A stretch of 56,011 bases of DNA from a virus (IMGVR_UViG_3300010413_000038:1-56011), one strand, 5' to 3'. Shown: positions 1,168-54,853, counted from the stretch's first letter. Notes: generated from the sequence alone by a model not told the origin. Numbers and translations are program-made.

Positions 1168-1213
1168 TAACAAAGTAATAAAATCAGTTTTAATTGATTT
1201 TTATCGCGTATTA
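1168..1213. repeat. 46-bp attC-like palindrome, copy 1 (right box degenerate, ATTA)
   Basis: TAAC-aaagt-AATAAAATCA-loop-TGATTTTTATC-gcgt-ATTA; same family as seven other copies. Confidence 0.75.
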
Positions 1214-1271
1214 TGACAAAAATCATAGCATATAATATAGTTAAAAACTATTTTTAAGAAAAAATATTATT

Positions 1272-4144: not shown

Positions 4145-4259
4145 GAAAAGCACTAACTAAAATATATTAATAAATCATAACACAATGGCAGGAAGCGTAT
4201 TTAAATCACTTAAATATCTCCGTTGAATTCGGAGCGTTATATTAAATTTTTCCAAAACC

Positions 4260-4273
4260 ATGACAAATATCAT
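4260..4273. promoter_or_regulatory. Palindromic operator-like ATGA-N6-TCAT
   Basis: Also at 1213, 7788, 8313, 15662, 18498, 50697; always intergenic, upstream of promoter-like sequence. Confidence 0.6.
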
Positions 4274-4337
4274 ATTAATATCATAACCTAACCCTTATCT
4301 TTACCGTATAAGAAAGTATAACTTAAAAATTAGCATT

Positions 4338-4619: not shown

Positions 4620-4820
4620 ATGACAACTTTAACAACAACAACAGGAACAAATTTAAAAGTAAGTTCAAACAAATCAAAGAGGTATTACACTATAGTAACT
4701 GAAACAGCAAAATTCATAACTAATCCAATGAGTCGGGAAGAATTTGACAATAATGCATACAACACCGGTCAAGATTGGAAGAATTTTCTAAAAACAGATG
4801 ATTATTACGAAGTTAAATAA
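4620..4820 (+). CDS. Hypothetical protein
   Basis: ORF in operon. Confidence 0.65.
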   Translation: MTTLTTTTGTNLKVSSNKSKRYYTIVTETAKFITNPMSREEFDNNAYNTGQDWKNFLKTDDYYEVK

Positions 4821-4821
4821 T

Positions 4822-4876
4822 CCGCTAATTCTTATCGGCACCGCCCCTAACTTGGAAACGAGCCTGGGATTTGGTG
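4822..4876 (+). ncRNA. Repeated structured intergenic element, copy 1 (copy 2 at 8585-8639)
   Basis: CCGCTAATTCTTA followed by CACC-CCCC-CTTG-GAAA-CGAG-GGG-GGTG hairpin with GNRA loop. Confidence 0.6.
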
Positions 4877-4912
4877 ATAGAAATAAATAACTAAATAAAT
4901 AACTAAATAAAT

Positions 4913-6034: not shown

Positions 6035-6526
6035 ATGGCAATAGTAATTAGATACACAGCAGACATTGAAGCAGATAAAAAAAGAAACTATACTACTTTT
6101 TCCGCAATGGGTTTTACTTCAAAAGATAAAGAAACATTTATTAATGATTTATCTGAATTAATGGAAAGCGAAATGACCGATTCATACGAATACATGACTT
6201 CTAATGAAATTGAAGAAAATATAATTGAAACTGAAAAAGGAATTACTCTTAAACAACATGACGGACTTTCATTTTGTTTGATTCCTGAAAGTATTTGCGA
6301 AGATGAAAATGGATGGAACGAACTTGAAGAAAGTAAAAAAATAGAACTAATAAACAATTACGGATATGCTTTAGGTTGCCAAGGAACTCACATTATTGTT
6401 GATGCTGATAATTTAGAAGCTAGTTTATATGAACATGAACAACATTTAGTTTTTGAAGTAAACGATTTTGAAGAAATTTATTCAGAAAGTTCAGACATGA
6501 ATATTATACTTAATAGAGCTAAATAA
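6035..6526 (+). CDS. Hypothetical acidic protein
   Basis: ORF downstream of ECF-type promoter. Confidence 0.7.
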   Translation: MAIVIRYTADIEADKKRNYTTFSAMGFTSKDKETFINDLSELMESEMTDSYEYMTSNEIEENIIETEKGITLKQHDGLSFCLIPESICEDENGWNELEESKKIELINNYGYALGCQGTHIIVDADNLEASLYEHEQHLVFEVNDFEEIYSESSDMNIILNRAK

Positions 6527-6816
6527 TGATAGACGAGCGTGTAAAAAAAATATTTGGGAGTTGGATTTCATTTGCGAACTTACAAAATCAAAACCCGACT
6601 AATTTTAAGCGTAAAATAATGCAGAATATTAGCCGCTTAAACAAATGGTTAGAACCTGCTGGAATGCAAATTAAAATTGTTTTGAAAAAACAAAAGCGTG
6701 TTAGCCAGCGAAGCGAACTGTTGGCTTTTAAGAAATTTATAAGCAAAACTCCACAGGCTGAATTGGAATACTATAGTGATGAAGAATTTACAGACCTTTA
6801 TATAAAAGCAAAATGA
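6526..6816 (+). CDS. Hypothetical protein whose C-terminal ~38 aa derive from a cassette starting at GTTAGCC (6700)
   Basis: GTTAGCC 6700-6706 is the reverse complement of GGCTAAC 6817-6823 just after the stop. Confidence 0.65.
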   Translation: MIDERVKKIFGSWISFANLQNQNPTNFKRKIMQNISRLNKWLEPAGMQIKIVLKKQKRVSQRSELLAFKKFISKTPQAELEYYSDEEFTDLYIKAK

Positions 6817-6946
6817 GGCTAACGGTTACGGGTATGTTGTCGTTGCGTGAATTTAGTAATAATTTAAAAAATAGAACAAATGATAAAATTTATTAGAAAC
6901 TTATTTAAAGGTAGAAAGCAGCAATGCAATATACCTGATGTTAGCG
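6817..6946. repeat. Long attC-like hairpin
   Basis: GGCTAAC-ggtta-CGGGTATGTTG..GTTGC ... GCAAT.CAATATACCTG-at-GTTAGCG. Confidence 0.7.
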
Positions 6947-7086
6947 TTTCGGTTGCTGGTACTTGTGGTACTTGCAGATTCGCTGACAGAGAAAGAGATA
7001 TGTGTGCAGCAGGAAGTTATTGGGCAGAAAAGGGGCACAATAAAGTTTGCTATGGTGGTGAGTTGTGGGAAGCAACTGAACGCTAA
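6880..7086 (+). CDS. Small Cys-rich protein starting inside the hairpin and reading into cassette 6940-7087
   Basis: CGTC..C..C motif; AT-rich initiation region; stop lies in the CGCTAAC box. Confidence 0.65.
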   Translation: MIKFIRNLFKGRKQQCNIPDVSVSVAGTCGTCRFADRERDMCAAGSYWAEKGHNKVCYGGELWEATER

Positions 7087-7129
7087 CGTAGAAATAAAAT
7101 GCGTTTTAATGCATTTTAATCGAATGTTA
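7084..7129. repeat. 46-bp attC-like palindrome, copy 2
   Basis: TAAC-gtaga-AATAAAATGC-gttttaat-GCATTTTAATC-gaat-GTTA. Confidence 0.8.
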
Positions 7130-7173
7130 TCGTAACATTTTTAATCATCCTGCGTATAATCAAATAAAAAGAC

Positions 7174-7742: not shown

Positions 7743-7788
7743 CAACGAAGAGATAAAATCAGTTTTAATTGATTTTTATTGATTGTTA
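7743..7788. repeat. 46-bp attC-like palindrome, copy 3
   Basis: CAAC-gaaga-GATAAAATCA-loop-TGATTTTTATT-gatt-GTTA. Confidence 0.8.
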
Positions 7789-7914
7789 TGATTTTTATCA
7801 TTGTTTTATAATAAAAAAATAACTATTTTTAGTACTAAATAATTAATATTATGATTTATATATATATTATATCATTTCTAATATTAGTACTTTTAATACT
7901 AAATGCGCCAATAA

Positions 7915-8292: not shown

Positions 8293-8394
8293 ATTTTAAA
8301 AAGTTTAAAAACATGACAAATATCATATAATAATTGTAACCTTATTTATATCTTTACGTATAAGAAAGTAATTAATAACTAAAAACAAAAAGTC

Positions 8395-8583
8395 ATGAAA
8401 GAAATTAGAGTTATAAGATATTCGAATGAATCAGGTTCAAGAGAGGGTGTTTATTTTACTGAAGATTTTGAAGTGTTAAATAGCGAAATTATACCTTATT
8501 GTTGTACGGTTAATTCAGATTTAATAATCGAAGTATCTGATTTTGATTTAAGTTTTCCATTGGATTATAATCTTGAAAGATAA
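8395..8583 (+). CDS. Hypothetical protein
   Basis: ORF after ECF-type promoter 8336. Confidence 0.65.
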   Translation: MKEIRVIRYSNESGSREGVYFTEDFEVLNSEIIPYCCTVNSDLIIEVSDFDLSFPLDYNLER

Positions 8584-8584
8584 C

Positions 8585-8639
8585 CCGCTAATTCTTAGCT
8601 GCACCGCCCCGGACTTGGTAACGAGCCGGGGATTTGGTG
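8585..8639 (+). ncRNA. Repeated structured intergenic element, copy 2
   Basis: CCGCTAATTCTTA followed by CACC-CCCCGG-CTTG-GTAA-CGAG-CCGGGG-GGTG. Confidence 0.6.
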
Positions 8640-8670
8640 GTATAAACTAACACTAAAAATTGAAATATAA

Positions 8671-9747: not shown

Positions 9748-10509
9748 ATGGGATCATATAAAACAAAATTAATAAATGGGATTACTTATAAAGTAATAAA
9801 TTATATTGAAAATATGGAATTAATATTTCCAAATGATTCAATTTATATTGAATATGATAAGATTATTATAACTAAATCTATCAAATGTAAAAATATATAT
9901 ATTAAAGGCGACCAGATAGTTAAAGGCTACCAGATAGTTGAAGGCTACCAGAGAGTTAAAGGCGACCAGAGAGTTGAAGGCTACCAGAGAGTTGAAGGCT
10001 ACCAGATAGTTGAAGGCGACCAGAGAGTTGAAGGCGACCAGATAGTTGAAGGCTACCAGAGAGTTGAAGGCGACCAGATAGTTGAAGGCTACCAGATAGT
10101 TAAAGGCTACCAGATAGTTGAAGGCGACCAGAGAGTTGAAGGCTACCAGATAGTTGAAGGCGACCAGAGAGTTGAAGGCGACCAGATAGTTGAAGGCTAC
10201 CAGATAGTTGAAGGCGACCAGATAGTTAAAGGCTACCAGAGAGTTGAAGGCTACCAGAGAGTTGAAGGCGACCAGATAATTAAATCTATACAAATTAATA
10301 GTTATTGTAAATGGACTATAATTGTATATAGACAGACAATTAAAATAGGGTGTAAAGAAAAAACTACAGAAGAATGGGAATTATTTTTTAAAGACAATAA
10401 AACATATGAAACAGATATTAATTCGAAAGAATATTTAAAAATAAAATCAGCATTTGAAATGGCTAAATCGGCACAAAAGCATTTAATATTAATGAATACT
10501 AATAAATAA
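9748..10509 (+). CDS. Hexapeptide-repeat (beta-helix-like) protein
   Basis: 21 x [KE]G[DY]Q[IR]V; C-terminal IKIGCKEKT.EEW domain. Confidence 0.8.
   Translation: MGSYKTKLINGITYKVINYIENMELIFPNDSIYIEYDKIIITKSIKCKNIYIKGDQIVKGYQIVEGYQRVKGDQRVEGYQRVEGYQIVEGDQRVEGDQIVEGYQRVEGDQIVEGYQIVKGYQIVEGDQRVEGYQIVEGDQRVEGDQIVEGYQIVEGDQIVKGYQRVEGYQRVEGDQIIKSIQINSYCKWTIIVYRQTIKIGCKEKTTEEWELFFKDNKTYETDINSKEYLKIKSAFEMAKSAQKHLILMNTNK
9904..10281 (+). repeat. Coding tandem repeat, 21 x 18 bp
   Basis: (A/G)AAGGC(G/T)ACCAGA(T/G)AGTT. Confidence 0.95.
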
Positions 10510-15095: not shown

Positions 15096-15299
15096 ATGGA
15101 AAAAATGACTCAAAAACAACAGATACTTGAAGCATTACAAGAAGGATTTCATTTAAGCAAATTACAGATGCTTCAGAGATTTAAAGTATGGAATTCCGGG
15201 CATGTAATATTTAAGCTTCGAAAAGAAGGACATGATATAAAAACAACGATGGTTAGAAATGAATTATCAGGGAAGTATTTTGCAACTTATCATTTTTAA
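15096..15299 (+). CDS. Small winged-HTH protein
   Basis: TQKQQILEALQEG..IFKLRKEGHDIKT..ATY pattern. Confidence 0.65.
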   Translation: MEKMTQKQQILEALQEGFHLSKLQMLQRFKVWNSGHVIFKLRKEGHDIKTTMVRNELSGKYFATYHF

Positions 15300-15337
15300 T
15301 GGTAAAATGCGTTTTAATGCATTTTAATCGATTGTTA
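15297..15337. repeat. Truncated copy of the 46-bp attC-like palindrome
   Basis: TAAAATGC-gttttaat-GCATTTTAATC-gatt-GTTA with left box eroded. Confidence 0.7.
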
Positions 15338-15356
15338 AAATTTTTAAAAACAATAT

Positions 15357-15659
15357 ATGAATAATGTAGATACGTCAATTTTAGATAAATTAATAATTGA
15401 TTTTAAAAATAGATTTCCAGAAATTGATTATTTTACCCAAACTATTATAATTAACTTAACAAATCAGGCTTTTTGTTTAGGTTATGACTCTCACAATCAT
15501 AGATTTAAAGGTAGATCTAAAAAAGTAAGACGTGGTGATGGGAAGAAATATGAAAGTATACATAGAGCCGCAAAAGAAAACCTAATAAATGAAGATAATC
15601 TAAGAAAAGCAATTAAAAATAAACATAAATGTGCAGGGTATTATTGGAAAACATTATAA
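15357..15659 (+). CDS. Protein with C-terminal NUMOD1-like DNA-binding domain
   Basis: YESIHRAAKE..I....LRKAI....KCAGYYWK. Confidence 0.6.
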   Translation: MNNVDTSILDKLIIDFKNRFPEIDYFTQTIIINLTNQAFCLGYDSHNHRFKGRSKKVRRGDGKKYESIHRAAKENLINEDNLRKAIKNKHKCAGYYWKTL

Positions 15660-15731
15660 ACATGACTAAAATCATTGTTTTAATGTAACTTTTAGTTTTT
15701 TTTTACGTAAAAAAATAAATAAAATCTAAAC

Positions 15732-18452: not shown

Positions 18453-18498
18453 TAACGCAGAGATAAAATGCGTTTCAATGCATTTTAATAGACTGTTA
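18453..18498. repeat. 46-bp attC-like palindrome, copy 4
   Basis: TAAC-gcaga-GATAAAATGC-gtttcaat-GCATTTTAATA-gact-GTTA. Confidence 0.8.
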
Positions 18499-18816
18499 TG
18501 ATTTTTATCATTGTTTATAACAAACTATATATTTAAATTTAAATATAATATATGAATATGAGTGAATTAGATAAAGCACAAAAGAAAATAGATGAAGCTC
18601 AAAAAAAGCTTAAAGAAGCTAAAGAAAAGAGAGAAATATCAAAAATAAGATATGATACTCATGTAATAATAATGGAAGGTCAAAGAAGAACACTTGCAGA
18701 TTTATAGAGAATGAATCAAGAATTAATGAATGAATTAATGAAATCTAATAATGTAGTTAGTGAATCACAAATTAATCTTCAAGAATCAATTAGTAATTTA
18801 CATAATTTAGAAACAG

Positions 18817-19552: not shown

Positions 19553-19598
19553 TAACGCAGAGATAAAATGCGTTTCAATGCATTTTAATCGATTGTTA
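19553..19598. repeat. 46-bp attC-like palindrome, copy 5
   Basis: TAAC-gcaga-GATAAAATGC-gtttcaat-GCATTTTAATC-gatt-GTTA. Confidence 0.8.
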
Positions 19599-19788
19599 TG
19601 ATTTTATTATCTAATTAATAATCACTATATTTGCTTATTATTATGATAAAAATGAAACAAATATACATCATACAGAATCGCAGAATATTGCGCGATCTTG
19701 ACGTAAAAACAAACGTCAATGATGAATGTTGTGTTCGTTATATTCATGATAATAGGGCTATAATGCCTAATTTTAAGCTTAATTAATT

Positions 19789-20268
19789 ATGTCTAATGCT
19801 GAATATCAAAATATGATTTTAGCTTATTACAAAGATTTAGAACATTTTGCTGCTCATCTAACAAACAATAGAGATGACGCTAAAGATTTAACACAACAAA
19901 CTTACTTAAAAGCACTTCAATTCAAAAATAAATATAAAGAACATAAATGCATTAAAATTTGGCTTTCAGTTATAATGAAAAACATATTTATTGATCAAAA
20001 AAGGAAAGAGAAAAACATTAAATATGATTATGATTTAGATGATTTAATTATTTCGGAGCCTGAAAATATAACATCAAAACTAACATTAGATGAAATATGG
20101 GTTTATTTAAACAAAAAATATAAAGAAAAAATGATAATGCCTCTAATTTTAAACGCAAAAGGTATTAAACACGAGGAAATATCTAAAAAGTATAATATAA
20201 ACATAAATACAATTAAAAGCAGGGTAAAAAGGGTAAGAGAAGTCTTAAGAAAAAGATATAATCTATGA
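19789..20268 (+). CDS. ECF-type sigma-70 factor
   Basis: Region 2 DAKDLTQQTYLKA..WL..IMKNIFID; region 4 GIKHEEIS...NININTIKSRV.R.R..L. Confidence 0.88.
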   Translation: MSNAEYQNMILAYYKDLEHFAAHLTNNRDDAKDLTQQTYLKALQFKNKYKEHKCIKIWLSVIMKNIFIDQKRKEKNIKYDYDLDDLIISEPENITSKLTLDEIWVYLNKKYKEKMIMPLILNAKGIKHEEISKKYNININTIKSRVKRVREVLRKRYNL

Positions 20269-23229: not shown

Positions 23230-23275
23230 TAACAAAGTAATAAAATACGTTTTAATGTATTTTTATTACATGTTA
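23230..23275. repeat. 46-bp attC-like palindrome, copy 6
   Basis: TAAC-aaa-GTAATAAAATAC-gttttaat-GTATTTTTATTAC-at-GTTA. Confidence 0.8.
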
Positions 23276-23309
23276 TAAATTATTAATAAACTAAATAAAA
23301 CATTAAATT

Positions 23310-24065: not shown

Positions 24066-24659
24066 ATGGATGAATTAAAAAAATATACTTTAAAAGAATT
24101 AAAAGAAAAACTAACAGTTAAAGAAAAAAAATTTTGTCATCAATATATTATTGACTGGAATGGAGCGAGGGCTGCAAGAGAAGCAGGTTATAGTGAAAAA
24201 ACAGCAAGAGAAATAGCACATTATAACTTATCAAAACTTCACATACAGCAATATATAGATTATATTAAGGATGATTTTGAAAAAGAATCAGGTATAAGTA
24301 AATTAAGACAACTAAACGAACTAATTAAAATAGCTTATTCAAGTGTTTCTAATTTACATGAAACATGGATTGAGTTAAAAGAATTCGAATCTTTAACAGA
24401 AGAGCAAAAATCATGTATTGAATCAATTGAAACAAAAACAGAGAAAAGATTAGAATATAATATTGAATCTAAAGAAAGAGATAAGGAAATTGAAATAAAA
24501 TATGTAAAATTAAAACTACATTCAAAAATACAAGCAATAGATCAAATTAATAAGATGATGGGATATAATGCGCCTAATGTATTAGAATTAACAGATAAAC
24601 GAAAAGATATATCTGAATTATTCCCAACTGATGATGAATTAAATGAAACGGAAGATTAA
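24066..24659 (+). CDS. terS: Terminase small subunit
   Basis: LTVKEKKFCHQYIIDWNGARAAREAGYSEKTA; KLHSKIQAIDQI.KMMG. Confidence 0.92.
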   Translation: MDELKKYTLKELKEKLTVKEKKFCHQYIIDWNGARAAREAGYSEKTAREIAHYNLSKLHIQQYIDYIKDDFEKESGISKLRQLNELIKIAYSSVSNLHETWIELKEFESLTEEQKSCIESIETKTEKRLEYNIESKERDKEIEIKYVKLKLHSKIQAIDQINKMMGYNAPNVLELTDKRKDISELFPTDDELNETED

Positions 24660-25059
24660 TCCAAATCTGAAATATCTTTATTCATGCCTGAAAAATCAAA
24701 AGTATGATGAAAATGAAGAATTAATATCAGGTAAAAGAGGAGTTATTTTAGAAGGTTCTAGTCGATGCTTTAGTGAGAATCAAAAAATATTAACTGATAA
24801 AGGAGTTAAAAGAATATATGATATAACCACTCAGGATAATGTAATAACATATAATGAAAATAAACGAGTAAATGAAATAAAGCGAGTTATAGCTAAATTA
24901 GTATTTAAAAATTCAAAAAAATGTTATAGGATAAAATTAAAAAATAATGAATTTATAGAAGTCACTGATGATCATGAATTTTATTATAATGGTAAATGGG
25001 TAAGTATTTCTAATATAATATATATTTGGAATGAAAGGAATAAAAAAAGAGAAAAATAA
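24643..25059 (+). CDS. terL: Terminase large subunit N-extein (41 aa) fused to split intein N-fragment (97 aa, from Cys42 at 24766)
   Basis: ILEGSSR|CFSENQKILT (intein block A); EVTDDHEFY (block B TxxH). Confidence 0.9.
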   Translation: MKRKINPNLKYLYSCLKNQKYDENEELISGKRGVILEGSSRCFSENQKILTDKGVKRIYDITTQDNVITYNENKRVNEIKRVIAKLVFKNSKKCYRIKLKNNEFIEVTDDHEFYYNGKWVSISNIIYIWNERNKKREK

Positions 25060-25699
25060 ATTTATTGCTCGTATATCAATAAATGGTAAAAGAATTCAAA
25101 ATAGTTTTGATGATATAGAATCAGCTAATAGTTGGTTGTGTTCAATACGGTTAAATAATAAATTAAAATCATTGCCTAATGAGGTATGGAAAATTATTCC
25201 TAATTTTAATAGATATATGGCATCTAATTTAGGTCGTATAAAATCATTAAATTATAAAAATTCTGGAATTGAAAAATTAATTAATCCATCTAAATCAACA
25301 GATGGATATTTAAAGACAATGTTAAAGAATAACGATAATAAATATTGTTCATGGGAGGTTCATAAATTTGTAATGAGATCATTTTATGGTAATTATAATG
25401 GATTAGAGGTTAATCATAAAGATGGTAATAAATTAAATAATCAGTTAACTAATTTAGAAATATGTACTAAATCTGAAAATGCTATACATGCGATAAATAA
25501 TGGATTATGGGAAATAAAAGTTGGAGAAAAAAATGGTATGGCTAAATTAACAAAAGAACAAGTAATTCAAGCTAGAGAAGCTAAAAAAAATAATGGTCGA
25601 TTTTGGGGAAGAAAAGAAATTGCAAAAAGTTTTAATATATCTGAAAAACATTTACAAAAAATAGTTAATAATCCAGATAAATTATGGTACAATGCTTAG
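25031..25699 (+). CDS. Free-standing NUMOD4-HNH homing endonuclease
   Basis: EVWKIIP..YMASNLGRIKS (NUMOD4); VHKFV..F, VNHKDGNKLNN..NLE.CT..EN..HA (HNH); GEKNGMAKLT. Confidence 0.92.
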   Translation: MKGIKKEKNKFIARISINGKRIQNSFDDIESANSWLCSIRLNNKLKSLPNEVWKIIPNFNRYMASNLGRIKSLNYKNSGIEKLINPSKSTDGYLKTMLKNNDNKYCSWEVHKFVMRSFYGNYNGLEVNHKDGNKLNNQLTNLEICTKSENAIHAINNGLWEIKVGEKNGMAKLTKEQVIQAREAKKNNGRFWGRKEIAKSFNISEKHLQKIVNNPDKLWYNA

Positions 25700-27027
25700 A
25701 TATAAATCAAATAGAAAGTATAGAAGAAATTGAATTAGATTATGTTTATGATATAACCATAAAGGATAATCATAATTATTATATTAATGAATTAAATCCT
25801 ATATTAGTACATAACTCAGGTAAAACATGGAGCTCAGTAGATTTAATAATATTAATATGTACAAGAATAGAAACCAATTGCGTTATAAACATAATAAAAG
25901 AAACCTACCAAAGCTTTAAAACAACATTATATAATGATTTTAATGAAAGGCTTCCTATGTTTGGTATTCCTTCACCGTTTGAACATGCAAAAGAATTGCA
26001 TAGCTTTAAAATATTCGGTAATAAAATAAATCTTATTGGAGCTGATAAAATAAGCAAGTTCGAGGGTATGGGATGCGATTATCTATATATTAACGAGATG
26101 TTGCCTATTGATAAAAAAGTGTTTGACCATGCAGAAATGAGATGTAAAAAGTTTTGGTGGGCTGATTATAACCCAAGTGTTACTGAACATTATATATTCA
26201 ATAATATTATTCCTAGAAAAGACGTAGGATTTATTCGTACAACATTTAATCATAATCCTTTTATATCAATACAAGAAAAAAAGAAGATACTTAGTTATGA
26301 GCCTTGGGAATCAGGAAGTTATATTGTAACAGAAGATTCAATATATTATAATGATAAGTTAGTAGATGAAAAAAACTATCCACCTCCACATAAAGAAAAT
26401 ATAGAAAATGGAACAGCCGATGAGTTTATGTGGAAAGTTTATGGATTAGGATTACGAGGAGCAATGAGAGGAGTTATATTTAATAATGTAACTTGGATAG
26501 ATGAATTTCCTGATATACATTTTGATTATGGATTAGACTTTGGATTTATAGCAGATCCAACAGTTATTACAAAATGTGCTGAAGATTATAATAATATATG
26601 GATTGAATATTTATCTTACGCTCCTATGGAAACACCGGATCAAATTTTTGAATATGGGAAATCAATAGGAATGAATTATAGATTACCAATAACAGCAGAT
26701 TCAAGTGATAAATATACAGGAGAAAATAAGGGAACTGTTGAGATGGTTAAGAGTTTACGAAAAATGGGATGGAATATAACTAAAGTAAGCAAAACGAAAA
26801 ATGTTATGTATTGGATAACATCTATGAAACAAAAAAAGATTCATATAGTAAAAAATGAATTCTATAAAGAAGCTAAAAGAGAACAGGAAAATTATAAATT
26901 AAGAGAAATTAATGGAATATCAATTAATCAGCCAATAGATGACTTTAATCATGGTTGGGATTCAGCGAGATATAGACATATGGCATTTAATTCTAAACGA
27001 CAAGGTATTATATTAAATAATGATTAA
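25684..27027 (+). CDS. terL: Split intein C-fragment (44 aa, to 25815) fused to terminase large subunit C-extein (PBSX-like)
   Basis: VYDITIKDNHNYY..ILVHN|SGKT; YINE, DYNP, GLDFGF..DPT, ADS, NHGWDSARY. Confidence 0.92.
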   Translation: MVQCLDINQIESIEEIELDYVYDITIKDNHNYYINELNPILVHNSGKTWSSVDLIILICTRIETNCVINIIKETYQSFKTTLYNDFNERLPMFGIPSPFEHAKELHSFKIFGNKINLIGADKISKFEGMGCDYLYINEMLPIDKKVFDHAEMRCKKFWWADYNPSVTEHYIFNNIIPRKDVGFIRTTFNHNPFISIQEKKKILSYEPWESGSYIVTEDSIYYNDKLVDEKNYPPPHKENIENGTADEFMWKVYGLGLRGAMRGVIFNNVTWIDEFPDIHFDYGLDFGFIADPTVITKCAEDYNNIWIEYLSYAPMETPDQIFEYGKSIGMNYRLPITADSSDKYTGENKGTVEMVKSLRKMGWNITKVSKTKNVMYWITSMKQKKIHIVKNEFYKEAKREQENYKLREINGISINQPIDDFNHGWDSARYRHMAFNSKRQGIILNND

Positions 27028-42847: not shown

Positions 42848-45286
42848 ATGAAAAGAATATTATGTTTAATAGCATTATTAATAATCATAGCAACATCTTA
42901 TAGTCAAGTTGGTAATTTTAGGGATTTAAGAGTACGAGAATCTATACGTCTAGGAGATAGTACTGTGACTATAATAGGATCTGATACACTTACTAATCCT
43001 GCAATGGTTCGTCAATTAATAAGTGAAGGTTCAGGGTATACAGCAAGTAATGGTATTACTAAAGTAGGAAGTGATTTTCAAACGGGGGGAACATTAACAA
43101 AAAATACATGGTATAATGGTAATTCATATGATTTTAATATAGGTCAACCAGCAAGCCAAGTAAATAATTTTGATGTTTGGAGTTCTGGAAATGCTACAAT
43201 TACATCAGATATCTTTAAAATTTCAATGCCATCTTACGAATGGACATTTGATGGGTTAAATATTACTGGTTCTGATGCTGATTATTTAGTAAAAAATAGC
43301 AGATTATTAAGTTATGTATCATCGCAAGAGAAGTCATCACCTTTTATATTTTTATATGAAAATCAAGGTGTAACAGCTAATCAAAGACCTGGCGTAGGAT
43401 TTTATTCAACAAATAGCGCAACCGCTTCACTTATAACGCAAATATATATAGATGATTATGATCAAAACTCAGTCGATAAACATAATTTTATCCAATTAGC
43501 CGATACAGGAAGCTATTTTTATATTCAACAAAAAGGTATAACTACAGCTTATTACATGTATCAGATAGAAAGTTTTGCAGATAGCTCTGGATGGACTGTG
43601 TATAACGTATATTATAAGTTCAGCACAGGAACTATAACAGTTACAGATAATATAGAACTCGTTTTAGAAATAAATAATAACGTAGGAGGTTATAGCGGAA
43701 CAGTAGATACTTTTTATGTGGCTGGTCAAAACGAATGGATATTTAGCGGTGATACTATTAGAAAAATAGATACAAGTAATTATAGTTTTTTATCTAATTT
43801 ATCGGATAGTTCTACTATTTCAGATAGTTCAAGGGTTGCAGCTTATGCCTATAATTCAGATAGTAATTTTGTCACTATTATAGCAGACACAGGATATATA
43901 AATAATATATATTCAGATAATGGATTTAAGGTAGATGGTGATTCTATAAACTTAAGTGATTTGACGGTTAGATTTGGATCTCAGATAGCTAATAAAGAAT
44001 ACACATCAGGTAATAATTTTTCATATGTAGCATTACCTGATGCATACGCGGCTTTAGCACATGGAGCGTCTAATTTAAGAAGTCAATTCTTAGCTGACGC
44101 AGGTTATGCTATAATGGAGGCTGTTAACACTGCTGGAGATGCTTATAGATATAAAATCTATGAAAATACGGCTTACTTAATACTAAACGGTAATGACACT
44201 ATTTATAAATTTAACACTGACTCATTGAAGGCTCCTGATGTTATTGCTGAGTTTAAAGAAGTGAATGTAGAAAAGTTAATATCTGATACGAATATTATAA
44301 ATGGAGACACAATAACTGGTGGAATATCTTTAAAAGATGCTGTTGAATCGGAGCAATTCGCTCAGATAAATTTTAAAGACACAACATTTACAGCGCAATC
44401 GGATGGGAGGTTATTTTACAATGAAAATACAAAAAATTTAATATTTGAGAATGATATATCAGATTTTGAACATAATATAGGTTATGAACTTGTAAAGAGG
44501 GTATATAATAATTCAGGATCAACAATTACGAATGGGAGCATAGTTAGGCGTACAGGTACATATGTTAACGGTTCAAGAGTTCCTACAGTAGGACTTGCAG
44601 GTAATGGATCGGCTGATAGTTCAAGAGTGTGTGGAATGGCAACTGTAGACATACCTAATAATAGCTATGGAATAATAACAATAATTGGAGACGTAAATTT
44701 TTATAACTCATCTCATTTAGCAGAAAATCAATTTTACTTAGGACATGCAGGATCTACTATAGATACATCTCCACCACCACCTTATTATTCTGTAGATTTA
44801 GGTTGTGTTATTTATTCAGATAATGATTCAGGTATTGTTGCCTTTAATTTTAGAAACCCAACATTTGATCCAACTCCTATTATAAGCTCAGATACTTCAG
44901 GATGGCTTAAATTAGTGAGTGTTACACAAAATATTTATACTAAATTTCAAATATCAGATTTTGATTTAGAAAATGATTACGGATTTACAAGATTAGGAGA
45001 CTCAATACGGTGTGATGTAGGTGGTTTTGTTACGATAGTAATGAATACCAGTTATACTGGTGCAGTAACTTCAGCTACTTGGAGGAAGGGTATATTTTTA
45101 AATGGAGTTAATAAACATTCAGTTAGTCGTTCAACTACATCTCAGGCTGTTGGAAATAGTACGGTTATAAAAACATTACGAGTTGAAGTAAATGATTATA
45201 TATCATTTAGGATAACGAATACAACAGGAAATGAAGACCCTACAATTAATGACTTTAGTTATCAAATACTATACTTACACGAATGA
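42848..45286 (+). CDS. Tail fibre/receptor-binding-like protein with Sec signal peptide
   Basis: MKRILCLIALLIIIATSYS|Q; TASNGITK..LGGTL-like fibre motif; C1q/TNF-like C-terminus. Confidence 0.6.
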   Translation: MKRILCLIALLIIIATSYSQVGNFRDLRVRESIRLGDSTVTIIGSDTLTNPAMVRQLISEGSGYTASNGITKVGSDFQTGGTLTKNTWYNGNSYDFNIGQPASQVNNFDVWSSGNATITSDIFKISMPSYEWTFDGLNITGSDADYLVKNSRLLSYVSSQEKSSPFIFLYENQGVTANQRPGVGFYSTNSATASLITQIYIDDYDQNSVDKHNFIQLADTGSYFYIQQKGITTAYYMYQIESFADSSGWTVYNVYYKFSTGTITVTDNIELVLEINNNVGGYSGTVDTFYVAGQNEWIFSGDTIRKIDTSNYSFLSNLSDSSTISDSSRVAAYAYNSDSNFVTIIADTGYINNIYSDNGFKVDGDSINLSDLTVRFGSQIANKEYTSGNNFSYVALPDAYAALAHGASNLRSQFLADAGYAIMEAVNTAGDAYRYKIYENTAYLILNGNDTIYKFNTDSLKAPDVIAEFKEVNVEKLISDTNIINGDTITGGISLKDAVESEQFAQINFKDTTFTAQSDGRLFYNENTKNLIFENDISDFEHNIGYELVKRVYNNSGSTITNGSIVRRTGTYVNGSRVPTVGLAGNGSADSSRVCGMATVDIPNNSYGIITIIGDVNFYNSSHLAENQFYLGHAGSTIDTSPPPPYYSVDLGCVIYSDNDSGIVAFNFRNPTFDPTPIISSDTSGWLKLVSVTQNIYTKFQISDFDLENDYGFTRLGDSIRCDVGGFVTIVMNTSYTGAVTSATWRKGIFLNGVNKHSVSRSTTSQAVGNSTVIKTLRVEVNDYISFRITNTTGNEDPTINDFSYQILYLHE

Positions 45287-50690: not shown

Positions 50691-50780
50691 TAAAACATGA
50701 CAAATATCATAGTTATAGTGTAGCCTTGTTTTTATCTTTACGTAAAAGAAAGTATAATTAATAAAACTTACTTTAAAATT

Positions 50781-50971: not shown

Positions 50972-51074
50972 TAACGGGATTGTGGTATGAAATCGAAACC
51001 GACAGCACCACAGCCAGAACAATGAACTACACTAACAGAGGTTTTGTTTTATACCACTTGTTACCAACTGGCGG
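50972..51074. repeat. Long attC-like hairpin plus cassette start (near-duplicate at 53800-53902)
   Basis: TAAC..GTGGTATGAAA..GAAACC ... GGTTTT.TTTTATACCAC-tt-GTTACCAACTGGCGG. Confidence 0.75.
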
Positions 51075-51185
51075 ACTTATCTTGCAAAAACGTTCATTAA
51101 ATGCTGAAAATAAAAAAAGCGAAGCGTGGGGATTTTTTTTCTTCTTTTTGCTTGTTTATTAAAAATATGTGTGTAAATTTGTAAC

Positions 51186-51347
51186 ATGAATGACACACAA
51201 AATAAAAACAGACGATTCCACTTATTTATTGAACAAAAATGGATTGATAGGCTAAAAATAGAAATGAACTCTTACGGCTTTACAACTGTTTCGTCATTCG
51301 TGAGATTTATAATTATAAAGTTCTTTGATAAAAATAAAAAGCAGTAG
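51186..51347 (+). CDS. Ribbon-helix-helix regulator (53 aa, absent from ORF track)
   Basis: RRFHLFI-EQKWIDRLKIEMNSYG-TTVSSFVRFII; promoter TAAATTTG at 51174. Confidence 0.65.
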   Translation: MNDTQNKNRRFHLFIEQKWIDRLKIEMNSYGFTTVSSFVRFIIIKFFDKNKKQ

Positions 51348-51486
51348 CGATAAGTGGGTTACTTCGCTATGGGAGCCGTGTGTCACTGGTTCGATTCCAG
51401 TATCCCTGCCAAATTAAAACAACATGCAGGGATTAGCTCAGTTGGTAGAGCAACGATACAGATTCCTACTTAAATTTTCTCTGCTT
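51339..51486 (+). ncRNA. yrlA: Y RNA (YrlA-like) 1
   Basis: 5'/3' closing stem with bulge and GCGA; T-arm ACTGG-TTCGATT-CCAGT, closed acceptor stem ATCCCTGC/GCAGGGAT, D-arm TAGCTCAGTTGGTAGAGC in permuted order; next to Ro60. Confidence 0.85.
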
Positions 51487-51496
51487 TTTAAAAATA

Positions 51497-51567
51497 TTGC
51501 AAGTGGCGATGAATGAGTTACTTCGTTTCGGATATGAAAAAATACTTATTCAATTTTTCCCTTGCAA
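51497..51567 (+). ncRNA. Minimal Y RNA-like 2 (Ro-binding stem only)
   Basis: TTGCAAG-T-GG-CGA-TGAATGAGT-TACTTCG ... ACTTATTCA-ATTTTT-CC-CTTGCAA; covaries with copies 1 and 3. Confidence 0.75.
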
Positions 51568-51572
51568 AGATA

Positions 51573-51710
51573 TTAGTGGTAGCGAAATGTGAGTTACTTC
51601 GAATGCTAATCGAGAGGTCGCAGGTTCGATTCCTGTCAAAATGGTGTATTCCGTTTTGTAGCTCAGTTGGTTAGAGCGCTAAAATTTCTCACGTTGATTT
51701 TCTCCACTAA
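51573..51710 (+). ncRNA. yrlA: Y RNA (YrlA-like) 3
   Basis: TTAGTGG/CCACTAA and AATGTGAG/CTCACGTT stems; T-arm GCAGG-TTCGATT-CCTGT; acceptor hairpin; D-arm TAGCTCAGTTGGTTAGAGC. Confidence 0.85.
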
Positions 51711-51719
51711 CTTATTTGC

Positions 51720-51759
51720 AAGGGTTACATAGCTATTTTATTGTGTAACCCTTTTTTTT
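51720..51759 (+). terminator. Terminator between Y RNAs and Ro60 gene
   Basis: AGGGTTACATA...TGTGTAACCCT plus long T-tract. Confidence 0.75.
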
Positions 51760-51787
51760 TGTTGAACTAATTTTAAATTTAATAGAT

Positions 51788-53218
51788 ATGTCAAGATTTA
51801 ACACTACTTCGGAAGGTACTAAAACCGTAAATTTAGCAGGTGGACAAGCATATAAACAAACACCTGAATTAGAATTGGTTTCAATATTGCTTACTTCGTT
51901 TGCAAATGACCAGTTTTATCGTTCATCTTCCGACACATTTGACACTTTAACGCAATTGATTTTAATGTGCGATAAAAAGTTTGTTGCGAAAGCTGCCATT
52001 TATGCAAGGACTAAATTTGGAATGCGTTCTATTTCTCACGTAGTTGCTTCCGAATTGGCAAAACATATTGGAGGTAATAAGTGGGCAAAAGATTTCTATG
52101 AATCTATTGTTTACAGACCTGACGATATGATGGAAATTTTATCGTATCATACATTAAAGAACGGTAAAATTCCAAATGCAATTAAGAAAGGTTTTGCTAA
52201 AGCATTTGATAAATTCGACCGTTATCAATTGGCTAAATATAGAGGTGAAGGGAAAGGATATAAATTGATTGATATTGTTAATTTAGTTCATCCAGTTCCG
52301 GTTGAAAAGAATGTAGATGCCATAAATGCACTTGTTAAAGGAGAATTGAAATCGTTCTATACTTGGGAATCTGAGTTAACACGTGCCGGGCAAAATGCGA
52401 CTTCTGAGGAAGAAAAGGCAGACTTTAAAAAAGATGTTTGGATTAAACTTGTAGGGGAACGTAAACTTGGATATTTTGCACTTTTGCGAAATCTTAGAAA
52501 CATTATTGAACAAGCACCTGAAGTTTTGGCCGAATCGCTTGAAATGCTTACGAATGAATCAATGATAAAAAAATCTTTGGTTTTACCGTTTCGATTTATT
52601 ACTGCTTTCGATGAAATTCAAAAGTTGAATAACGGTAAAATTGTTCGTGAAACATTGATTGCTTTGAATAAGGCTGTTGACATTTCAATTTCCAACGTTC
52701 CAAAGTTTGATGGTGAAACACTGGTTGTTTTGGACGTTTCCGGCTCTATGTCTGGAAAACCTGCTGTAATTGGCTCTCTGTTTTCTGCTGTTTTGGTAAA
52801 ATCAAACAACGCTGATTTTATGACATTTTCAGACAGGGCGCAATATCGAAACGTAAATCCAATGGATTCTACAATAACAATTGCAAATTCATTGCGCTTT
52901 TCGATGGGAGGAACCAATTTTCAAGACATTTTCAGGGTTGCAAACAAAAAGTATGACCGTGTAGTAATACTTTCAGATATGCAGGGATGGATAGGTTATT
53001 ACTCACCTGTTGCTGAATATAACAACTGGAAACGAGTTACCGGAGCAAATCCTTTTGTTTATTCGTTCGACCTTAATTCATACGGAAACATGCAATTTCC
53101 TGAACAGAATGTATTTTGTTTAGCTGGATTTTCTGACAAGGTTTTCGATATTATGAAACTTTTGGAACAAGATAAGAACGCATTAGTGAACGAGATTCGC
53201 AAAGTTTCTTTTTCCTAA
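51788..53218 (+). CDS. rsr: Ro60/Rsr RNA-binding protein (TROVE plus vWA domains)
   Basis: NLAGGQAY, FYRS, FDRYQLAKY, TWE, ALLRNLRN, LPFRF; vWA DVSGSM, GGT, LSDMQ. Confidence 0.95.
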   Translation: MSRFNTTSEGTKTVNLAGGQAYKQTPELELVSILLTSFANDQFYRSSSDTFDTLTQLILMCDKKFVAKAAIYARTKFGMRSISHVVASELAKHIGGNKWAKDFYESIVYRPDDMMEILSYHTLKNGKIPNAIKKGFAKAFDKFDRYQLAKYRGEGKGYKLIDIVNLVHPVPVEKNVDAINALVKGELKSFYTWESELTRAGQNATSEEEKADFKKDVWIKLVGERKLGYFALLRNLRNIIEQAPEVLAESLEMLTNESMIKKSLVLPFRFITAFDEIQKLNNGKIVRETLIALNKAVDISISNVPKFDGETLVVLDVSGSMSGKPAVIGSLFSAVLVKSNNADFMTFSDRAQYRNVNPMDSTITIANSLRFSMGGTNFQDIFRVANKKYDRVVILSDMQGWIGYYSPVAEYNNWKRVTGANPFVYSFDLNSYGNMQFPEQNVFCLAGFSDKVFDIMKLLEQDKNALVNEIRKVSFS

Positions 53219-53308
53219 TGGTTTTGAAAAAACCAATGTGCGGTGGGGCTTTTTTTATTTCTTCGCATACTTCTGTCGTTGATTAAATGAGCCGCCACCG
53301 CTTGTTGG

Positions 53309-53354
53309 TAACGAAGAGATAAAATGCGTTTCAATGCATTTTAATCGAATGTTA
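53309..53354. repeat. 46-bp attC-like palindrome, copy 7
   Basis: TAAC-gaaga-GATAAAATGC-gtttcaat-GCATTTTAATC-gaat-GTTA. Confidence 0.8.
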
Positions 53355-53408
53355 ACGTAACCTTTTAAATAATTTACCGTATAATCAGTATAACTAAAAA
53401 CAAAAGTC

Positions 53409-53627
53409 ATGTACGGTTCTATGCCAATATCGAAATACAGAATAGCCAGATATTTATTTCTTAGTGAATATACAAATTATGAAATTCCTGAGAAATTCAT
53501 AAATTTAGCAGTTAATGATTTGATGAAAAAACCGGATAGATTCTTGGTTAAGAAATTTAGGCGTAGGCATTATATAAATTTACGAGTTTTTGCGCCTGGA
53601 TTATTCCAAATAATTTACGATTTATAA
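53409..53627 (+). CDS. Hypothetical protein
   Basis: ORF after ECF-type promoter 53357. Confidence 0.6.
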   Translation: MYGSMPISKYRIARYLFLSEYTNYEIPEKFINLAVNDLMKKPDRFLVKKFRRRHYINLRVFAPGLFQIIYDL

Positions 53628-53799
53628 ACTAAAACTATGAAAAATAAGGTATATTATAATAAAGAAGAGGTTATATTAACCGGGAGAACTAACAAATTTC
53701 TATTTGAAGTTAAATTTCAAACAGGAGAAACTAGATTCATACACGTAGATGATTTAGATTTTATTTCTGATATAAGAGATAAGAATCACTTCTTTTAAT

Positions 53800-53902
53800 T
53801 AACGGATTGTGGTATGAAATCGAAACCGACACAACCACAGCCTAAACAATGAGAATAAGCAACCAGATATTTTGTTTTATGCCACTTGTTACCAACTGGC
53901 GG
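53800..53902. repeat. Long attC-like hairpin plus cassette start (near-duplicate of 50972-51074)
   Basis: TAAC-ggatt-GTGGTATGAAA ... TTTTATGCCAC-tt-GTTACCAACTGGCGG. Confidence 0.75.
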
Positions 53903-53955
53903 TTATAACGAACCTCGATTAAATGAACAGAAGTAATAATTAAATATTTAAACAG

Positions 53956-54126
53956 ATGAAAAAGATTTATAAAACTAAAGGATTACCATATTATGTGAAG
54001 AATTGTAATAATATTTTTGATGCGGTGGCAGAACTGCTTAAAAATAGAATAGGTGTAACAGAAAACGACTTGGAGGAAGTAAAAACAGACCTTATTCAGA
54101 TGGGTGCAAAAATATTTTGTGCATAA
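53956..54126 (+). CDS. Small cassette gene (56 aa, absent from ORF track) in cassette 53888-54198
   Basis: MKKIYKTKGLPYYV...KIFCA; leader and trailer homologous to those of the RNA ligase gene. Confidence 0.6.
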   Translation: MKKIYKTKGLPYYVKNCNNIFDAVAELLKNRIGVTENDLEEVKTDLIQMGAKIFCA

Positions 54127-54194
54127 CCATATTTAATTATGGACAAGTTACCACATAAGTCTGTTAAATGTACTGCCTTTCTTCCGCTTGTTGC

Positions 54195-54317
54195 TAACGG
54201 TTTAGCTATGAATAGTAGCGGATTAATAGCACAAATTTATCAAAATGAGATACAGTAAATTAATATTATAAACCTATCGAGTAGCACTAATACCACTATT
54301 ATTTATAGCTGTTGTTA
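54195..54317. repeat. Long attC-like hairpin
   Basis: TAAC-ggttt-AGCTATGAATAGTAG ... CTATTATTTATAGCT-gtt-GTTA. Confidence 0.75.
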
Positions 54318-54343
54318 TGCGCTGCAGATGCTAATTAAAAGAT

Positions 54344-54754
54344 ATGAGTTTAAGAAAATTAATACCAATGACCGATTTTGTAAATCAAATTTTAGCTTAT
54401 ACGAAAGAAAGCAATAATTACCAAAGAGGTATACAACTAATTGATTGGTATGCTGAATTAATACAGCAACCTATAAGTATGGAAATGTTTAAAGGCGATA
54501 ACCCTTTATTTCCGAATTTTAAAATTGTAGAATCTCAAAAAGAAGCCACAGAAAACAACTATAAAAATGCTATTTGGTATTTTGGCAATGGCGAATTTGC
54601 CACTACGCTTTATCGAAAATCAGAACACAGCACAACAAAGTCAGGAATGTGTTTTATTACCAGTTTTCATTTAAGTACAATTGAACAACTTTGTGATAAA
54701 GATATTGATTTTAGTATGTTATCTGAATATGCAGAGAGTGACATATTTGATTAG
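54344..54754 (+). CDS. Hypothetical protein in cassette 54314-54766
   Basis: KLIPMTDFV..YA.LI.QP...MF; cassette ends GTTATGCGC / GCGCATAAC. Confidence 0.75.
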   Translation: MSLRKLIPMTDFVNQILAYTKESNNYQRGIQLIDWYAELIQQPISMEMFKGDNPLFPNFKIVESQKEATENNYKNAIWYFGNGEFATTLYRKSEHSTTKSGMCFITSFHLSTIEQLCDKDIDFSMLSEYAESDIFD

Positions 54755-54762
54755 GTTGCGCA

Positions 54763-54808
54763 TAACAAAGAGATAAAATCTGTTTTTATGGATTTTCATC
54801 GATTGTTA
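54763..54808. repeat. 46-bp attC-like palindrome, copy 8
   Basis: TAAC-aaaga-GATAAAATC..GATTTT-C-ATC-gatt-GTTA. Confidence 0.8.
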
Positions 54809-54853
54809 ACGTAACCTTATTAATTCAATTACGTATACTCTAATAAAAAATCT

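Follow-up and report, generated by a model that had tools for sequence, protein, structure and literature searches.

A close described counterpart of the system reported here comes from Qi et al. (2023, PMC9892861), who reported attC-site clusters without an integron integrase (CALINs) in virulent phages, including Polaribacter phage P12002L. We analyzed a 56,011-nucleotide (nt) viral DNA, IMGVR_UViG_3300010413_000038:1-56011 (hereafter the window, meaning this whole stretch), which comprises a complete 55,867-bp phage genome plus a 144-bp terminal repeat and carries every called gene on the + strand. An original prediction, made from the sequence, had read several of its accessory loci as integron-like gene cassettes. 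Our results indicate that positions 50972-54809 and 6820-7130 are probably mobile gene-cassette arrays, in which the units are separated by attC-like recombination sites that fold as single-stranded DNA. The system probably functions like an integron, yet it is not a canonical integron. The papers cited below are represented by selected sections, and statements about them hold for those sections.

Comparison with described cassette systems

Qi et al. described two P12002L sites and read them as substrates of the integrase IntI (PMC9892861). P12002L_attC1 was found by HattCI only and attC2 by both HattCI and Infernal. IntI1 recombined five of six phage hairpins with AAC...GTT bases, including P12002L_attC2 (bottom strand), and P12002L_attC1 was the sole one not recombined. 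The attC1 hairpin is of the same kind as the 46-nt hairpin A of the window (TAACGG..., loop TCGTTTTAATG, ...ATTGTTA), and the unit flanked by attC1 and attC2, which holds a methyltransferase gene, shows at its ends the box signature of the cassettes described below (GTTAGGCAC/GTGCCTAAC). P12002L and the window phage are alike in having no integrase, and methyltransferase cargo is found in P12002L as well as in one of our other viral contigs, G010. The cited sections of that paper make no mention of complementarity across units, of multiple hairpin families or of chromosomal arrays in Bacteroidia.

A second likeness is to the promoter-early stem-loops (PeSLs) of T4-type phages, which are repeated modules of a stem-loop and a promoter, located in plastic parts of the genome, where accessory genes come, go and swap, and for which circular intermediates have been reported (Arbiol et al. 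2010, PMC2839356; Comeau et al. 2014, PMC4122927). Exchange at PeSLs is homologous and takes place between like repeats, whereas here the neighbouring hairpins are unlike, the inverted boxes are specific to each unit and the sites lie beside a recombinase gene in bacteria. The pdif modules of Acinetobacter plasmids are Xer-dependent cassette-like modules outside the classical proteobacterial integrons, and we liken our system to them by description only. The same applies to archaeal integrons, where cassette-like modules outside those integrons are handled by tyrosine recombinases of the Xer/IntI family (Ghaly et al. 2022, 10.1101/2022.02.06.479319).

Bacteroidetes have been described as nearly devoid of integrons (10.1101/030866; Neron et al. 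2022, 10.1101/2022.02.28.482270). One integron paper lists a single complete Bacteroidetes integron, in Salinibacter, and another counts Bacteroidota among the clades "previously found without any integrons". A literature search found no published description of the hairpin arrays that we report from Bacteroidia, although one may still exist in print.

Hairpins and cassettes in the window

Four kinds of hairpin abut the boxes, all starting with TAACG and ending with TGTTA: A (46 nt, nine copies), B (92 nt, two copies), C (123 nt) and D (124 nt). The original prediction held that units begin and end with complementary GTT.../...AAC boxes and are joined by TAAC...GTTA hairpins. Both points were confirmed, as all five box pairs were found at the positions given below, with 9-mers that are unique or nearly so, and the 46-nt repeat family and the longer hairpins fold as described. 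Type A is a true repeat family: under covariance model R1 its nine copies, all on the + strand, scored 58.6-76.7 bits and the runner-up 18.1 bits, and the inner stem covaries (GC/GC, CA/TG, AC/GT, CU/GG). The usual length of attC sites is about 57-141 nt, and type A falls short of it. R1 found no copy in the structural region at 24-50 kb, where the original prediction had seen none of these elements either. A site proposed at 9.1 kb scored 14.2 bits only and was not supported, and the proposed list of loci had overlooked an A copy at 15292.

The array at 50972-54809 has the order B, cassette, A, two open reading frames (ORFs), B, cassette, C, cassette, A. The first hairpin B (50972..51063, + strand, 92 nt, TAACG...CTTGTTA) forms the junction 5' of the cassette that carries an Rsr gene; its arm duplex is more stable on the + strand (-23.7 kcal/mol) than on the - strand (-15.4). 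Cassette 1 (51060..53312, +) runs from box GTTACCAAC at 51060 to box GTTGGTAAC at 53304 and is closed by a hairpin A (53309..53355, +, 46-47 nt, R1 73.0 bits), whose upstream 9-mer pairs with the one at 51060. Its cargo consists of ORF 51186-51347, two YrlA-like RNAs and a Ro60/Rsr-like ORF with TROVE and vWA domains (51788-53218). The cassette 1 block recurs at 90-95% identity in other metagenomes and in viral contigs, where its left break at 51054-51056 lies behind differing hairpins (run X4, contig L126).

The second hairpin B (53800..53891, +) is a direct repeat of the copy at 50972 and precedes cassette 2 (53888..54198, +), whose boxes GTTACCAAC and GTTGCTAAC are complementary at 8/9 positions. 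The ORF of cassette 2 (53956-54126) lies between a 5' leader at 53911-53947 and a 3' element at 54129-54198. Both recur, at 86-122 and 1102-1171 (families D11 and D13), around an RNA ligase gene at 132-1070, which has the leader and the 3' element and lacks the 5' box. Other cargo is found between flanks of the cassette 2 type in runs X2 and X3 and in the viral contigs G008 and G009. Hairpin C (54195..54317, +, 123 nt) has a covarying stem and belongs to the 124-nt class, with 104.7 bits under R2, a covariance model made from viral copies of 124-nt hairpins only; its arm duplex has -24.7 on the + strand vs -17.1 on the - strand. Cassette 3 (54314..54766, +; boxes GTTATGCGC and GCGCATAAC) holds ORF 54344-54754, with 21 nt between the first box and the start of the ORF and 3 nt between its end and the second box, and a hairpin A closes the cassette (54763..54809, +, R1 68.6 bits, fold z-score -4.4). 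The block 54195/54292-54768 is 97.7% identical in contigs of X2 and X3, and these diverge from the window past 54768.

The array at 6820-7130 consists of hairpin D, a unit and hairpin A. Hairpin D (6820..6943, +, 124 nt) is also a member of the 124-nt class (R2 77.5 bits), with a minimum free energy of -23.9 on the + strand vs -10.5 on the - strand. The unit (6940..7087, +, 148 nt; boxes GTTAGCGTT and AACGCTAAC) holds the 3' two-thirds of ORF 6880-7086, whose start codon is in the loop of hairpin D, and it is followed by a hairpin A (7084..7130, +, R1 73.1 bits, fold z-score -3.3).

Each box occurs once or twice in the genome. GTTGGTAAC (53304), GTTATGCGC (54314), GCGCATAAC (54758) and GTTAGCGTT (6940) occur once each, GTTACCAAC at 51060 and 53888, GTTGCTAAC, which has one mismatch to its partner, at 54190 and 1163, and AACGCTAAC at 7079 and 36498. 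The 7-mers GTTAGCC (6700) and GGCTAAC (6817) have one occurrence each.

Complementarity across units

The R box comprises the bases just outside the hairpin, and its front strand pairs with the strand behind the previous hairpin and not with its own. When the comparison was anchored on the hairpins of the window, 5, 4 and 5 of the 5 variable bases were complementary across the unit, against 1 locally. The corresponding values in G010 were 4, 5, 4 and 5 of 5 across the unit and 0-3 locally. The direction of the partner was analyzed for 34 strong hairpins in six sequences (one G008 hairpin being counted on both strands), where 19 had it as predicted and 3 the wrong way; among 76 background TAAC..GTTA hairpins from 925 kb of other phage loci, 4 had the predicted direction and 1 the wrong one. 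Genome-wide, the window had 14 pairs of 9-mers of the form GTTA.../...TAAC, which is not above shuffled sequences (mean 9.3, maximum 18), and G010 had 15 (shuffled mean 4.3, maximum 12). Against shuffled controls, complementarity in the window shows no genome-wide excess, but it is a strong signal once anchored on hairpins.

The box helix extends inward by at least six further pairs and shows covariation at position 10, and at position 11 there is a conserved G.T in 29 of 44 units and a reverse A.C in 2. Besides TAAC and GTTA, whose constancy is by construction since the hairpin finder itself imposed them, the next G and T are constant in the core (35/37 each). The integron core consensus that had been proposed for these sites did not fit, as only 1/37 array hairpins matched RYYYAAC and 3/37 matched GTTRRRY.

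Recurrence in other phages

Viral contigs with hairpin B were found by exact-word scans using parts of B. The box pattern recurred in contigs G008, G009, G010, L126, L138 and L139 (the last being the same as L142 and L145) and in P12002L. Hairpin B is about 91% identical in G008, G009, G010, L138 and L139, and the flanks diverge exactly outward of TAAC and GTTA. Proteins shared between the B carriers and the window are almost nil (at most 9 window ORFs, in G009), and tblastn of the window ORFs against the other carriers found no protein common to all and no shared phage-encoded enzyme.

The box signature is denser in the B carriers than in the window; in L138 and L139 most strong hairpins had partners on both sides, with units of 140-2200 nt. 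The hairpins fall into length classes of 46, 85-92 and 122-127 nt. At least 13 units bracket an ORF tightly, the first box lying 4-60 nt ahead of the ATG and the second 2-13 nt past the stop codon, and of 44 phage units 26 held an ORF sense to the hairpin, 5 an antisense ORF and 13 none. Cargo included DNA methyltransferases in G010 and, with motifs judged by eye, RtcB-like and methyltransferase-like genes in G009 and G008.

The 124-nt hairpins belong to a single family, which has a 17-pair stem that covaries and two G.T pairs that are conserved. In this class 88% of cells were paired, 13 of 22 pairs showed compensatory change and the covariation score was 0.407 vs 0.140 for shuffled alignments, with 0/500 shuffles reaching 0.407. 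Single copies of hairpin A were found in 13 metagenome and 6 genome loci, mostly antisense to the neighbouring genes. Six hairpin A loci from metagenomes and Aquimarina (L094, L101, L091, L092, L097 and L105) also held several hairpins of the 124-nt class, up to 5 in L094, so the short and the long site types co-occur beyond phages.

Arrays beside a tyrosine recombinase gene in Bacteroidia

Aquimarina had surfaced in the scan for hairpin A, and we therefore scanned its class, which is also that of G005 and which we take to be Bacteroidia (GTDB). R2 matches were found in at least 109 of 151 genomes of the class, with up to 23 candidates per genome being scored, and many were clustered. Without the unpublished genome G104 this tally is 108/150. 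Seven loci were fetched (G158, G019, G067, G134, G126, G117 and G138), and five of them were arrays of 6-42 hairpins; G067 had five hairpins and G134 one. A perfect 9/9 match across the unit was seen in 13/13 adjacent pairs of G158 (14 hairpins; G158:C35:1-32000, L161/L162), 8/13 of G019 (14 hairpins), 4/5 of G126 (6 hairpins), 12/19 of G117 (20 hairpins) and 37/41 of G138 (42 hairpins; G138:C1:4344001-4404000, L168-L170). Together this makes 74 of 91 pairs, one incomplete hairpin match being excluded, and the local scores were mostly 3-7 of 9. All 69 matches in G126, G117 and G138 were on one strand within their arrays, and G019 had its 14 hairpins on the - strand with two stray + matches beside them. 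The median unit in G138 was 675 nt.

A tyrosine recombinase gene was present near one end of the array in 7/7 fetched loci. In G158, G019, G067 and G134 a distance of 0.8-3 kb separates the recombinase ORF from the nearest hairpin, and the 3' end of the ORF points toward the array; in G126, G117 and G138 the recombinase match, known by its position, lies 6.5-23 kb past the last hairpin. By coordinates alone, a recombinase match and hairpins also share a contig in G151, G153, G053 and G141. Four array-linked recombinases were 369-404 amino acids (aa) long (369 aa in G158), with an N-terminal extension of roughly 95-130 aa. The model that fitted them best was the XerA-type "tyrosine recombinase/integron integrase" model of NCBIfam (213-233 bits, cut-off 220). 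On the integron-integrase model TIGR02249 they scored 206-217 bits (cut-off 265) and matched in two stretches. In line with this, the G158 recombinase aligned unbroken to the solved structure of XerA and in two pieces to that of IntI4. Judged by these alignments, the array-linked recombinases are XerA-like and without the IntI insertion. A match to the integron integrase above the curated cut-off was found in 1/301 genomes of the class (1/299 without the unpublished G104 and G190), and in this genome, G290, there was no RYYYAAC...GTTRRRY hairpin within 14 kb of the gene.

The original prediction had proposed that the recombinase comes in trans from the host and that IntI-like integrases should be sought beside the same hairpins in Bacteroidota. 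That search did lead to a candidate machinery, with a tyrosine recombinase at the arrays, and the part not supported is its identity as IntI.

The one bacterial array scanned for cargo, G158, carried a complete restriction-modification cassette (C5 methylase, BanI-type restriction enzyme and controller) along with genes for an Eco57I-like enzyme, GmrSD (type IV restriction), a YhcG nuclease, Fic, TerC and MerT/ArsR, metal-resistance genes among them. This array looks like a defence and stress gene bank, as described for sedentary chromosomal integrons.

The sites have a common anatomy: an invariant 5-bp base (TAACG/TGTTA, with a closing G.T) carries an unpaired, asymmetric spacer, then a long stem that covaries and finally a variable loop. 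Several traits are shared with integrons. The units are co-oriented and mostly hold a single gene, the folded sites of 46-127 nt have an AAC/GTT base, unpaired spacer, long stem and variable loop, and the opening bases of a unit are complementary to the next site's inverse box, not to their local partner. The integron-cassette geometry that had been predicted for the phage units was thus upheld. The bacterial arrays resemble integrons further in having a tyrosine recombinase gene at one end and defence and stress cargo. Unlike integrons, these sites do not follow the core consensus and have a complementary helix of at least 15 bp with a conserved G.T. The array recombinase also differs, being XerA-like with its N-terminal extension and its 3' end toward the array, and the genes of the phage units are on the opposite strand relative to the site.

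DNA site or RNA element

Hairpins between genes could also serve as punctuation of transcripts. In that reading, the hairpins and the long-range helices are signals for transcript processing, stability or translation, the boxes are kept by selection on RNA and ordinary recombination produces the mosaicism. Several observations from the phages fit it. The arm duplex was more stable on the gene-sense strand in 40/46 phage hairpins (p = 7.6e-9), so the folding strand in phages has the gene-sense sequence. The stems have conserved wobbles of the G.U type (11 and 12 of 17), as does helix position 11 (29/44), the boxes bracket ORFs tightly in the 13 or more units mentioned above, certain start codons are within hairpin loops and the strand of the G008 hairpins tracks the gene strand in both arms of that genome. 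An RNA-structure reading, based on the strand bias, the wobbles and the tight bracketing, was overturned by the bacterial arrays. Here the ORFs are opposite to the strand of the hairpin model, with 4932 vs 529, 11199 vs 1361, 5683 vs 0, 7161 vs 1034 and, in G138, 12363 vs 1038 aa. The asymmetric base TAACG/TGTTA nevertheless stays on the model strand in phages and bacteria alike, as does the position-11 G.T in 2/3 G158 units (by eye). Since ORFs are antisense in bacteria and sense in phages, the polarity of the site is independent of mRNA sense, and this, together with the arrays lying beside a recombinase gene, means that the hairpin acts as a DNA site and not as an mRNA element. A role in RNA would moreover need only the local hairpin, yet local complementarity is low, and a scan for intrinsic terminators picked out no hairpin. 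We therefore regard transcript punctuation as an unlikely explanation of the whole pattern, while the hairpins may have an added role in phage transcripts.

Hairpin A also resembles the terminator/promoter modules known from PeSLs, with a promoter-like motif behind three of its copies. That the terminator scan flagged no hairpin speaks against the terminator part of this resemblance. The same simple scan showed no excess of sigma-70-like promoters, and no Rfam family was found on the hairpins, nor a ribozyme at E <= 5.

Proposed mechanism and alternatives

In our model, a circular cassette would carry one long hairpin made up of the box helix and the actual hairpin. Insertion would come about when the circle and a resident site exchange strands at the base of the hairpin. 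One box strand would then follow the upstream hairpin and the other would precede the downstream hairpin, matching the pattern that we observed. The exchange would take place during infection and would be carried out by a Xer-like recombinase, of the type linked to the arrays, that is provided by the host and acts in trans on the phage sites. We infer this because the phage has no recombinase, as had been predicted (among its 95 ORFs searched with PHROGs and 67 with Pfam there was no tyrosine recombinase, serine recombinase or transposase), and because the same site family is present in Bacteroidia arrays beside a recombinase. Bacteroidia is the likely class of hosts. Homologous or illegitimate exchange would also contribute, since the pairing of hairpins and units varies and the break points in L126 and L127 differ, and it is the likely cause of cargo swaps between the leader behind hairpin B and the 3' element.

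A number of observations weigh against mobile cassettes, besides the sense-strand bias in phages. A complementary upstream box is present at three of the nine A copies only (7084, 53309 and 54763) and lacking at six, all on the + strand: 1168..1214, which is preceded by a 3' element ending in GTTGCTAAC, 7743..7789, 15292..15338 (R1 58.6 bits, degenerate 5' arm), 18453..18499, where the box upstream finds its only pairing partner in the 3' flank of the same copy, 19553..19599 and 23230..23276. These six delimit multi-gene blocks of 1.1-30 kb. The idea of cassettes dispersed over many loci is thereby reduced to the three A copies that bound cassettes, as those at 1.2, 18.5, 19.6 and 23.2 kb bound blocks without boxes. 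Boxes also lie inside ORFs, at 6940 (ORF 6880-7086), at 6700 (ORF 6526-6816) and at 44447 in G010. The Rsr block breaks at 53256 in L126 and at 51134 and 53213 in L127, so not all exchange is at boxes. Hairpins and genes are paired inconsistently, as C keeps its downstream ORF in X2 and X3 and the Rsr unit is found behind three different hairpins; hairpins B and C remain with the downstream unit in several genomes. The link from phage to array is at the level of class only, and the bench-tested hairpin nearest type A, P12002L_attC1, was the IntI1-negative one.

Neither did the contig data contain a recombination event, a circle, a cassette-level polymorphism or a contig pair differing by one cassette, L139, L142 and L145 being identical where they overlap. 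A joint from 53313 back to 51054 in X3 (one contig, 33 letters) was the sole joint of this kind linking cassette ends, and a 21-nt repeat at 53882 accounts for it equally well. The X1 joints 53354 -> 44000 and 53370 -> 53310 were cross-matches among hairpin A copies. All four runs are contigs that break at repeated hairpins, and ends at 53312, 51009 and similar positions are uninformative on mobility. Among phages no close relatives for mapping break points were found, and scans with the tail protein and with a 136-aa cassette protein were likewise empty.

Some of these points would be met if PeSL-like modules of a hairpin and a promoter were shuffled by homologous recombination through Erf, the exonuclease, NinB and NinG, with no site-specific enzyme. 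T4-type phages shuffle genes and form mini-circles by way of their stem-loops (PMC2839356, PMC4122927). In the window a promoter-like motif, GTAACC-N16/17-CGTATAA, follows three A copies and a palindrome follows four, the recombination genes are present, cargo differs between conserved flanks (hairpin B with the leader, and the 3' element) and the break points in L126 and L127 are variable. Units are usually flanked by different hairpin families, however, and homologous exchange between unlike hairpins is implausible because they have only the 5-nt base in common. Nor does this explanation predict 42 co-oriented sites beside a tyrosine recombinase, or perfect matches in 74/91 pairs. It is improbable as an account of the system, and such recombination could well lie behind the exchange of cargo between B leader and 3' element.

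It is even less probable that the loci are ordinary integron components, that is, CALINs with normal attC sites used by a host IntI. The cassette geometry is integron-like, HattCI called the homologous P12002L hairpin an attC site and IntI1 recombined five of the six phage hairpins, but the same enzyme failed on P12002L_attC1 (PMC9892861). The core consensus was matched in only 1/37 (RYYYAAC) and 3/37 (GTTRRRY) hairpins, the sole genome of 301 with an integron integrase over the cut-off had no attC-type hairpin within 14 kb of it, and the array-linked recombinases stayed below the TIGR02249 cut-off, the one compared with solved structures aligning unbroken to XerA. Finally, short inverted repeats arising by chance near intergenic hairpins in an A+T-rich genome would fit the window's 9-mer pair count, which is within the shuffled range, and the weak 7-mer pair 6700/6817, but this is contradicted by the hairpin-anchored tests, the covariation of the helix and the recurrence in other genomes, and has a negligible probability.

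Returning to mobile cassettes with folded DNA sites, the inference of the original prediction is largely borne out and its interpretation partly supported. On balance we lean towards the view that Bacteroidia have a widespread, unannotated integron analogue, with a XerA-like recombinase that lacks the IntI domain and handles arrays of as many as dozens of cassettes by way of folded TAACG...TGTTA sites of about 125 nt, into which unrelated Bacteroidota phages plug. The phage arrays would be part of this shared system, lacking a recombinase and with the opposite gene orientation. If this is true, hosts bank defence genes and phages trade counter-defence genes, such as methyltransferases and RNA-repair modules, in one currency. 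If the arrays are active, a major phylum owns a cassette system overlooked by standard detectors, which phages join without an enzyme of their own, and unrelated phages, perhaps also phage and host, would have a concrete way of passing defence and counter-defence genes rapidly between them. It would also be a second case, independently evolved or deeply diverged, for the origin of folded-DNA recombination sites and cassettes.

Cargo and other features of the phage genome

Matches to PHROGs and Pfam placed structural genes of siphovirus type at 24-50 kb and identified a primase/helicase and a recombination module (Erf, PDDEXK exonuclease, NinB and NinG). Judged by the helicase, phages of Flavobacterium columnare come closest among cultured phages (46.8% amino-acid identity), and hairpin A was absent from the helicase relatives of the window phage (<=51% aa identity). 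ARAGORN found no tRNAs in the window, and no Rfam family reached its gathering score.

Two Rfam matches to YrlA (Y RNA-like) are located at 51377-51456 and 51596-51703, just 5' of the Ro60/Rsr-like gene, with 33.8 and 40.2 bits (E = 1.8e-6), both below the gathering score of 69. Both modules are permuted and tRNA-like; their halves match real tRNAs in other metagenomes, with the anticodon arm between them. The RNA ligase gene is 2.9 kb beyond the Rsr gene, across the genome end. The YrlA-like RNAs, Rsr and the RNA ligase look like a phage RNA-repair module carried as cassette cargo. The phage cassette cargo, with the Rsr and Y-RNA-like genes, the RNA ligase and, in relatives, DNA methyltransferases, is likely to serve counter-defence.

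The motif GTAAC(C)-N16/17-CGTATAA occurs at seven intergenic sites. Three are directly 3' of hairpin A (7131-7165, 53356-53390 and 54810-54845), and the others are at 4255-4317, 8308-8370, 15657-15719 and 50692-50754. We assume a resemblance to promoters of the ECF type (AAC at -35, CGT at -10). A small sigma factor with Sigma70_r2/r4 is encoded at 19789-20268 (159 aa), and alongside it the motif may represent a phage-specific promoter class. The palindrome ATGAT-TTTT(T)-ATCAT (or ATGACAAATATCAT) is present 3' of four A copies, among its positions being 7785-7800, 18495-18510 and 19595-19610, and also in the D7 repeat family, where it is 5' of the promoter-like motif. It has the look of an operator.

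Between the small terminase gene and 25684-27027, where the large terminase gene has its C-terminal part, there are an intein splicing/HINT domain at 24643-25059 and an HNH_3/NUMOD4 endonuclease at 25031-25699. The large terminase gene may thus be interrupted by an intein or a homing element. ORF 9748-10509 encodes a 253-aa protein with weak tail-fibre-like matches and a relative in G009 at 41% identity, and it contains 21 tandem copies of an 18-nt unit (a 6-aa repeat) at 9830-10374. An 84-nt intergenic repeat (80% identity) at 4800-4883 and 8563-8646 has G+C-rich inverted segments (GCACCGCCCC...GGGATTTGGTG) and is possibly a structured element unrelated to the cassette hairpins.

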